Notes: generated by a model from the letters alone, not told the origin. DNA of 64,000 bases from an uncultured Clostridia bacterium (GCA_947307175.1 CAMZIK010000001.1:21220-85219), one strand, 5' to 3'; counted from the stretch's first letter, positions 13,420 to 14,277 are shown. A program made the numbers and translations.

Positions 13420-14277
13420 ATGGCTAAGGAATTAAGACAGATCGCAATATACGGAAAGGGAGGTATCGGCAAGTCGACCACAACGCAGAATCTTACAGCG
13501 GGACTTGTCGAAAGAGGAAATCACGTAATGGTCGTAGGCTGTGACCCTAAGGCAGACTCAACAAGACTTCTGCTGGGCGGACTTCATCAGAAGACAGTCC
13601 TTGATACTCTGAGAGATCAGGGTGAGGACGAGATAGAGCTTGACGCTATCCTCAAGGAAGGCTTTATGGGAACAAAGTGCGTTGAGTCGGGCGGACCTGA
13701 GCCAGGCGTAGGCTGTGCAGGACGTGGTATCATTACATCTATCGGACTTCTCGAAAGGCTCGGCGCATATACCGAAGATCTTGATTATGTTTTCTATGAT
13801 GTCCTTGGAGACGTTGTCTGCGGCGGTTTCGCAATGCCTATCCGTGAGGGCAAGGCAAAGGAGATCTACATCGTAGCCAGCGGCGAGATGATGGCGCTTT
13901 ATGCGGCAAACAACATCTCAAAGGGTATCGCAAGATATGCCCGTCAGGGCGGCGTAAGGCTTGGCGGCATCATCTGCAACAGCAGAAACGTTGACCGTGA
14001 AGCAGAGCTTGTAAGAGCGTTTGCAAAGGAGCTGGGAACACAGATGATACATTTCGTTCCACGTGACAACGATGTTCAGAGAGCAGAGATAAGGAAGAAG
14101 ACCGTTATCCAGCATTTCCCGCAGTCCAGACAGGCAGACGAGTACAGAGCGCTCGCCGAGAAGATAGAGCAGAACGATATGTTCGTTATTCCTAAGCCGA
14201 TGACTCAGGAAAGACTTGAAGAGATACTCTTTGAGTACGGCCTTATGGAGAACGTTGAAGCAGATTACAGAATTTGA
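13420..14277 (+). CDS. nifH: Nitrogenase iron-protein homolog (NifH family; MarH-like)
   Basis: [33 protein letters not shown] and [11 protein letters not shown]. Ends ADYRI. Confidence 0.95.

Follow-up and report, generated by a model that had tools for sequence, protein, structure and literature searches.

The stretch of DNA analysed here, referred to as the window, comprises 64,000 nucleotides from an uncultured Clostridia bacterium (GCA_947307175.1, CAMZIK010000001.1:21220-85219). Its plus strand carries an operon that encodes, in order, a cystathionine gamma-lyase-like enzyme, a CysK paralogue, a NifX-like protein, a NifB-like protein, an Fe protein, D-like and K-like subunits and a second NifX-like protein (Table 1). 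The D subunit is 95-98% identical to records from Ruminococcus sp. and R. albus, and the genome is that of a Ruminococcus albus-type organism. A second copy of the island, 94-99.6% identical, was found at G000:C46:16070-19528 and G000:C142:405-4097 (LacI, MccB-like and CysK paralogue; Fe protein, D and K); either the island is truly duplicated, or the assembly (3.4% contamination) includes a second strain.

Table 1. Genes and features of the sulfur island, and the bona fide CysK, with their sequence-based assignments (window positions unless a contig is named).
Feature	Position	Strand	Basis or remark
SAT-like hexapeptide transferase, 317 aa, ends ...WFYII	G000:C1:19393-20346, just upstream of the window		CysE, 170.6 bits
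Sulfonate/taurine-type ABC importer ATPase, SaoA/TauB-like, ends ...PQPEYMI	4925-5728	+	
LacI-family regulator, ends ...TEPEYYI, immediately upstream of the operon	8675-9766	+	LacI-family matches
Cystathionine gamma-lyase/synthase-like PLP enzyme, MccB-like, first operon gene	10087-11247	+	PRK07671, 556 bits
Operon CysK paralogue, MccA/cystathionine-beta-synthase-like	11253-12158	+	cysKM 345, cysta_beta 341, cysK 338 bits (cysK below cut-off)
NifX-like carrier	12168-12539	+	NifB profile, 41 bits on the NifX-like part
NifB-like radical SAM maturase	12515-13396	+	NifB profile, 255 bits on the radical SAM part
NifH-like Fe protein, NflH Group I type, 285 aa	13420-14277	+	NCBIfam nifH TIGR01287, 458.8 bits (cut-off 394)
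C-terminal tail ENVEADYRI, residues 277-285	14248-14274	+	Proposed CysK-docking peptide: last four residues, D-Y-R-I
Nitrogenase-like catalytic subunit D	14295-15761	+	All nitrogenase alpha/beta models far below cut-offs
Nitrogenase-like catalytic subunit K	15774-17114	+	All nitrogenase alpha/beta models far below cut-offs
Second NifX-like gene	17171-17503	+	Same operon
Rrf2/CymR-like regulator, ends ...KDYMYYI	18466-18915	-	Rrf2 95 bits, CymR model 84 bits
Bona fide CysK (O-acetylserine sulfhydrylase A), proposed docking partner	26274-27206	+	TIGR01139, 447.5 bits, above cut-off

The P-loop GKGGIGKS and the cysteines C99 and C134, all invariant in the alignment, together with the TIGR01287 score place the Fe protein in the NifH family. 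Its closest solved structure is the NifH of Clostridium pasteurianum (PDB 1cp2, 464 bits), and MarH from Rhodospirillum rubrum (9fmg_D) scores well under this, at 280 bits. As judged from these comparisons, the protein is a canonical-type NifH with an added tail, and it matches NflH Group I, a class of Fe proteins defined by Arroyo Carriedo et al. (PMC13753814). The original prediction had labeled it a group IV NifH; that label belongs to the D/K partners, and the Fe protein is canonical in type and nearest to the C. pasteurianum protein. Two more NifH-like genes (G000:C26:10158-14139), encoding proteins of 253 and 262 aa that are 48-50% identical to the Fe protein of the window, lie beside distant D/K-like genes and belong to another nitrogenase-like (NFL) system. 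Neither of these proteins has an Ile tail (...GFEADA and ...EDKSDE).

No canonical NifD was found in the genome, which is 99.8% complete: the best score to a NifD model was 145 bits, compared to a cut-off of 653, and the system does not qualify as a true nitrogenase. Because the genome is devoid of canonical NifD and both D and K score far below the nitrogenase cut-offs, the Fe protein most probably serves an NFL sulfur enzyme and not a nitrogenase. The alignment of D with R. rubrum MarD (9fmg_A, 447.7 bits) is full-length. The D subunits of Endomicrobium and Heliophilum, to which that of the window is 73% and 64% identical, are about as distant from MarD, with scores of 440 and 470 bits. The enzyme thus appears to be a group IV NFL reductase from the Mar/Nfa neighborhood, in which IV-A and IV-C were compared by scores to one solved structure. 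It shares with NfaBHDK (Group IV-A) and with MarBHDK (Group IV-C), the methylthio-alkane reductase that frees methanethiol and a hydrocarbon from methylthio-alkanes, the combination of B, H, D and K genes with NifX-like carriers in a sulfur operon.

Positions 14200-14277 of the plus strand form the 3' end of the 285-codon Fe-protein gene, which reads ...DYRI followed by a TGA stop codon, so that the protein ends in an isoleucine with a free carboxylate. The alignment with C. pasteurianum NifH (1cp2) stops at residue 274. Twenty clostridial NifH proteins linked to a canonical nifD all end 8-11 residues sooner, in ...G[IL][LM][DE][ILAM] or ...GIMG, which bears out the claim, made when the locus was first noticed, that the protein continues past the usual NifH end as ENVEADYRI. 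In an AlphaFold2 model of the Fe protein, the last helix spans residues 263-272, residues 273-285 are without secondary structure, and the pLDDT is below 50 for residues 278-285. The tail is therefore predicted from the model to be exposed, flexible and able to reach into an active-site cleft.

To assess the distribution of the tail, the Fe protein was used to search 400 Clostridia genomes, sampled evenly, and the flanks of the 30 best matches were inspected. (A search of a library of 50%-identity representatives gave mostly fragments and fusions, and the census of C-termini was taken from the 400-genome sample instead.) The context was counted as sulfur or NFL where NifB/NifX-like genes, D/K genes of group IV, transporters of the sulfonate type or cysK lay alongside. 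Among these 30 matches, a tail of the form D-[DN]-Y-[RKQ]-I was found in 8/10 NifH-like genes in a sulfur/NFL context, and the extension was absent from all 20 that were directly followed by a canonical-type nifD, which end in ...GILDI, ...GIMG, ...GILEL and the like. An equally common tail in canonical NifH, which would have spoken against a special role, is thus not what is seen in these genomes. The two sulfur-context relatives that lack the tail, a point against a docking role, are L097 and L105. The comparison shows that, at the level of sequence, the tail sets sulfur-context Fe proteins apart.

A terminal isoleucine alone was considered as the defining mark and rejected. Eight of the 20 canonical nifD-linked clostridial NifH proteins also end in isoleucine (...[LM]DI), but there it sits directly on the last helix, with no linker and no aromatic residue at position -2; it is accordingly by these two traits that the tail is told apart. 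The ...[LM]DI end of these proteins (loci L103-L123) is a possible evolutionary seed of the extended tail. Other NifH-like proteins outside the sulfur context, which are about 50% identical, end in isoleucine in 3/28 cases, near background.

A tree was built from which the last 12 residues were left out. It includes 11 sulfur-context rows, namely the Fe protein of the window (L094) and the ten sampled matches, of which nine are tailed and two are not. These 11 form a single clade with support of 93/95 that spans eight families. The pattern suggests one gain of the tail, long retention and one or two losses. With probably just one gain behind the tailed Group I clade, the association between tail and context counts few independent events.

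Within the clade, the tail is tightly conserved. The terminal isoleucine is present in 118 of the 120 closest homologs (86-98% identical), with the pattern [ED]-[DN]-Y-x-I. The D subunit was used to collect 80 genome loci (63-98% identity); in these, all but one of the Fe proteins that are at least 79% identical to that of the window bear [DN]-Y-x-I or something close to it. Among 51 distinct DNA tails, Ile(0) is encoded by ATC in 20, ATT in 18 and ATA in 13, and Tyr(-2), which is found in 50 of them, by TAC in 37 and TAT in 13. Position -1 varies between R, K, H, N, E and V. Because the tyrosine and the isoleucine persist through synonymous codon turnover while the residue between them varies, the sequences indicate that Tyr(-2) and Ile(0) are under purifying selection, and that their conservation is not due to recent common descent.

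Tails of this kind are known from proteins that bind to CysK. A regulatory complex between CymR and CysK exists in Bacillus subtilis. In Staphylococcus aureus, CysK has been crystallized with C-terminal decapeptides of CysE (...QDDYII, KD 9 uM) and of CymR (...GYMFYI, KD 25 nM) (Pederick et al., bioRxiv 10.1101/2024.09.19.614015). The carboxylate of the peptide isoleucine contacts T73, N76, T77 and Q145, while the aromatic residue at -2 lies in a channel made by M124, I128, F146, A227 and F229; the two peptides have different residues at -1. Both peptides compete with O-acetylserine (OAS) and inhibit CysK activity (bioRxiv 10.1101/2024.09.19.614015).

By sequence, the Fe-protein tail E-[AD]-D-Y-R-I has the same architecture as the crystallized CysE and CymR peptides. 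It shares with CymR and CysE an aromatic-x-Ile-COOH motif on a flexible end, and it is predicted to enter CysK at the same residues. In the variant E-D-D-Y-R-I it is nearly identical to the Q-D-D-Y-I-I of S. aureus CysE. One difference is that position -1 of the tail is basic (R or K), where the known CysK peptides have I or Y. The way in which the tail is conserved, with Y and I fixed and -1 free, is likewise what the S. aureus CysK-peptide structure predicts.

The bona fide CysK of the window aligns with the CysK structures from Mycobacterium tuberculosis at 386 bits and keeps all of the positions that contact the peptide in S. aureus CysK: the TSGNT loop, M124, I128, the Q/F and G-T positions and Q223-G-I-G-A227. 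When this CysK was folded with residues 271-285 of the Fe protein, the ipSAE was 0.45, 0.45 and 0.46, compared to 0.02 for the best control, which the tool grades as "weak support"; the peptide chain is shorter than any calibration case, and the model may recall solved CysK-peptide complexes. Confident contacts were made by CysK residues 74-78, 105, 125, 147, 181-182 and 224-228 with residues 282-285 only, and in the crystallographic peptide site these are the Asn loop, the helix-4 methionine, the Gln/Phe pair, and loops 3 and 4. Folding CysK with the full-length Fe protein gave a score of 0.01, which is neither support nor counter-evidence. The suggestion in the original prediction that this is a putative CysK-binding tail is thus well supported by several independent comparative lines, and weakly by the fold with the isolated peptide.

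Group I is not the only lineage of Fe proteins with such an end. NflH Group II, the R. rubrum MarH-type lineage, was sampled from Heliophilum fasciatum MarH, and 109/120 of its proteins end in [AG]-[GNS]-Ile and 8/120 in Leu. In the Clostridia sample, six end in Ile and six in Leu, a split that weighs against docking. Alignments to R. rubrum MarH (9fmg_D), with full-length as well as tail-only queries, stop at residue 288 and leave the last nine residues outside. On these sequences, Group II gained its terminal isoleucine independently, in convergence with the Group I tail. In five genomes, in which both lineages are represented, a cysK gene starts 12-89 nt downstream of the gene for a tailed Fe protein. 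The cysK-family genes directly after nflH are of the bona fide type, and their products are 53-73% identical to the CysK of the window.

Similar ends are also found on the neighbors of the Fe protein. Five proteins encoded by the 23 genes of the 21-kb island, the Fe protein and four others, end in Y-x-I, compared to 18/3195 complete ORFs genome-wide (binomial probability about 2e-7). The four are the SAT-like transferase, the importer ATPase, the LacI-family regulator and the Rrf2/CymR-like regulator (Table 1), and two of them, SAT and CymR, are known types of CysK client. The tail of the Rrf2 regulator (...YMYYI) resembles that of S. aureus CymR, the tighter of the two crystallized ligands, and its M-Y-Y-I is kept in homologs as low as 27% identity. 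Over 20 loci, the tail of the ABC ATPase has Tyr(-2) in 20/20 and Ile(0) in 19/20, and position -1 is free. The EPEYYI of the LacI protein is invariant in 28/28 loci while the identity of the whole protein drops to 56%. Across the loci that were fetched, with 1683 complete ORFs, tail-like ends occur almost entirely in four families (Fe protein, ABC ATPases, LacI and Rrf2); beyond these, there are only singletons.

Next to the NFL genes, many genomes encode an ABC ATPase that resembles MetN and is about 262 aa long (L049:2340-3128, L074:5171-5992, L084:12793-13587 and 14 further loci). It covers only positions 2-244 of the 343-position MetN profile and is thus without the methionine-sensing C2/NIL domain. 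Instead, it ends in G-[EDA]-G-I or G-E-[FY]-I, a tail like that of CysE.

Taken together, the best explanation is that the Fe protein carries a CysK-docking tail of the CysE/CymR type, most likely for negative control when sulfur is sufficient, and a rough probability of 0.6 can be attached to this reading. D-Y-R-I-COOH, on a flexible linker of about ten residues, would be the docking peptide. The carboxylate of the terminal isoleucine would occupy the substrate-carboxylate site of CysK, made by the Asn loop and the glutamine, with Tyr(-2) filling the adjacent hydrophobic channel and the residue at -1 pointing outward, where it would be free to vary. The tail would compete with OAS for CysK; the complex would form at low OAS, when sulfur or cysteine is sufficient, and would fall apart as OAS builds up under sulfur limitation. 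Docking would lower the activity of the reductase, and ATP would not be spent when sulfur is sufficient. We infer both the OAS-dependent assembly and the lowering of the reductase by analogy with the CymR-CysK and cysteine synthase complexes.

The two parts of this reading do not carry the same weight. That the tail docks to CysK is probable, as judged from sequence and modeling. That docking inhibits the reductase is argued by analogy and is more doubtful, although still worth serious consideration. With two tails per Fe-protein dimer and two sites per CysK dimer, a bivalent complex may be possible, and a bivalent clamp that limits the nucleotide-driven hinge is conceivable, if speculative. 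In NifH structures, we take the C-terminus to lie away from the docking face of the [4Fe-4S] cluster. If it is indeed remote from that face, it is not evident how docking would simply hinder D/K binding sterically, and other uses of the docked tail, including one in which CysK is the regulated party, stay alive.

One such use would be as a tether in a metabolon, in which thiol or sulfide is captured at the free protomer of CysK; in another, the abundant Fe protein would buffer or inhibit CysK. In both cases, the tail would dock to CysK for reasons other than switch-off. The presumed remoteness of the C-terminus from the D/K docking face fits with these ideas, as does the finding that in five genomes cysK comes directly downstream of a tailed nflH, an arrangement suggestive of partners in stoichiometric amounts. 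PLP enzymes that use up the product are likewise encoded in the operon, and docked peptides do inhibit the activity of S. aureus CysK. However, a docked tail would block the very active site that is needed for product capture, and for the two repressors and the importer ATPase that bear the same type of tail, regulation is the more natural reading. On balance, a tether or buffer is unlikely.

The tail might instead bind a different partner, such as the CysK paralogue of the operon, another PLP enzyme of fold II, a protease or adaptor that reads C-termini, or D/K itself. The genome encodes five to six CysK-family paralogues, including the one in the operon, and the complex predictions do not tell which member of a family binds. 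However, the operon paralogue differs at four of the peptide-contact positions (S74A, T99K, Q223E and A227N), all of which are kept in the bona fide CysK, and it was set aside as the less likely docking partner. The pattern of the tail is that of the crystallized CysK ligands, and the cysK-family genes found directly after nflH are of the bona fide type. A partner other than the bona fide CysK is thus quite improbable. Least credible is that the extension is left over in one lineage and binds nothing: the tailed Group I proteins do form one clade, possibly by inheritance from a single event, and two members have lost the tail and kept the gene, but two positions are held at the amino-acid level through synonymous turnover next to a neighbor that varies, the tailed clade spans eight families, and convergent Ile tails are found on a second Fe-protein lineage and on four unrelated neighboring protein families.

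Negative control through the Fe protein would act in parallel with the docking of CysK to other proteins of the island, namely its two regulators (CymR-like and LacI), importer ATPase and SAT-like enzyme. Taken one step further, CysK could be a PII-like sulfur hub that reads OAS and gates the whole organosulfur-scavenging module through interchangeable Ile tails, an idea that is attractive but rather unlikely on present evidence. Such a module would include two types of importer ATPase, in one of which the MetN C2 domain was replaced by the G-x-G-I tail, the CymR-like and LacI repressors, the SAT-like enzyme and both lineages of Fe protein; membership this broad is equally tentative.

Direct control of nitrogenase-family enzymes is well known. 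Nitrogenase is switched off by DraT/DraG through ADP-ribosylation of Arg100 of NifH and by NifI1/NifI2 (PII) acting on NifDK, and MarS acts on MarDK in R. rubrum (Chem Rev, PMC13474568). MarS controls the activity of the methylthio-alkane reductase post-translationally in sulfate-replete cells (PMC13474568). The known control of this reductase consists of MarS and the LysR regulator SalR, in one alphaproteobacterium. What the switch proposed here has in common with DraT/DraG, NifI and MarS is that a sensor of nutrient status acts directly on an ATP-costly enzyme of the nitrogenase family. It would differ from these in that the sensor is a metabolic enzyme, CysK, reading OAS, and in that the handle is a peptide of the Fe protein rather than a covalent modification or a regulator at the D/K surface. 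The arginine targeted in DraT-type modification is present on the Fe protein (R102) and invariant in the alignment. The Pfam profile for DraT had no match in the genome; it had none in the control genomes either, which makes the result uninformative.

The published clients of CysK are CysE, CymR and CdiA-CT. The last of these is a protein from outside the pathway: CdiA-CT(EC536) reportedly plugs a C-terminal Ile tail into CysK, which activates the toxin nuclease. In that complex the client is a toxin nuclease, whereas here it would be an endogenous metabolic enzyme. The clients in the CymR-CysK and CysE-CysK complexes are a transcription factor and an enzyme of the cysteine pathway, in contrast to the ATP-dependent electron-donor subunit that is predicted to dock here. 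In the NFL literature examined, there was no mention of CysK binding or of the C-terminus of the Fe protein, and a full-text literature search for CysK together with "nitrogenase-like" returned nothing relevant. The Fe protein may thus be a new class of client for a known docking mechanism, with the docking predicted from sequence and models. On this analysis, an ATP-costly enzyme may be under direct protein-level control by sulfur status.

The study of nitrogenase-like reductases that release sulfur from volatile organosulfur compounds is young and active. If the proposal is true, there is a simple route from the cell's sulfur status, as OAS, to an ATP-consuming Fe protein in gut and soil Firmicutes, and a large class of enzymes joins the short list of CysK clients. 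Group I Fe proteins were present in all five Group IV-C systems that had low activity in sulfate-grown R. rubrum, and replacement with R. rubrum marBH raised the activity about 100-fold, for which the authors propose host incompatibility (PMC13753814). An alternative explanation for the low activity would be that the CysK of the host docks to the tail in sulfate-replete cells; a CysK hub, if real, could account for this. The tail is also of practical use. With more than 76% identity to true clostridial nifH, the nifH-like genes of the tailed clade are easily mistaken for markers of nitrogen fixation, and the tail is a sequence mark that separates the sulfur-type genes from the true ones at a glance.

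A few more Ile-tailed proteins are encoded elsewhere in the genome. A second regulator of the Rrf2 family (G000:C18:952-1377, 141 aa) ends in ...VEYDYII. The protein that scores above the CysE cut-off (G000:C101:823-1494, 242.8 bits) ends in ...KKNKEEK and has no Ile tail; it is the weaker SAT-like protein of the island that has one. Three copies of a gamma-glutamyl cyclotransferase-like protein (GGACT/AIG2) end in ...QMSFGI (G000:C31:14370-14927, C68:13389-14000 and C189:4237-4797), and these may be another Ile-tailed group linked to thiol metabolism.
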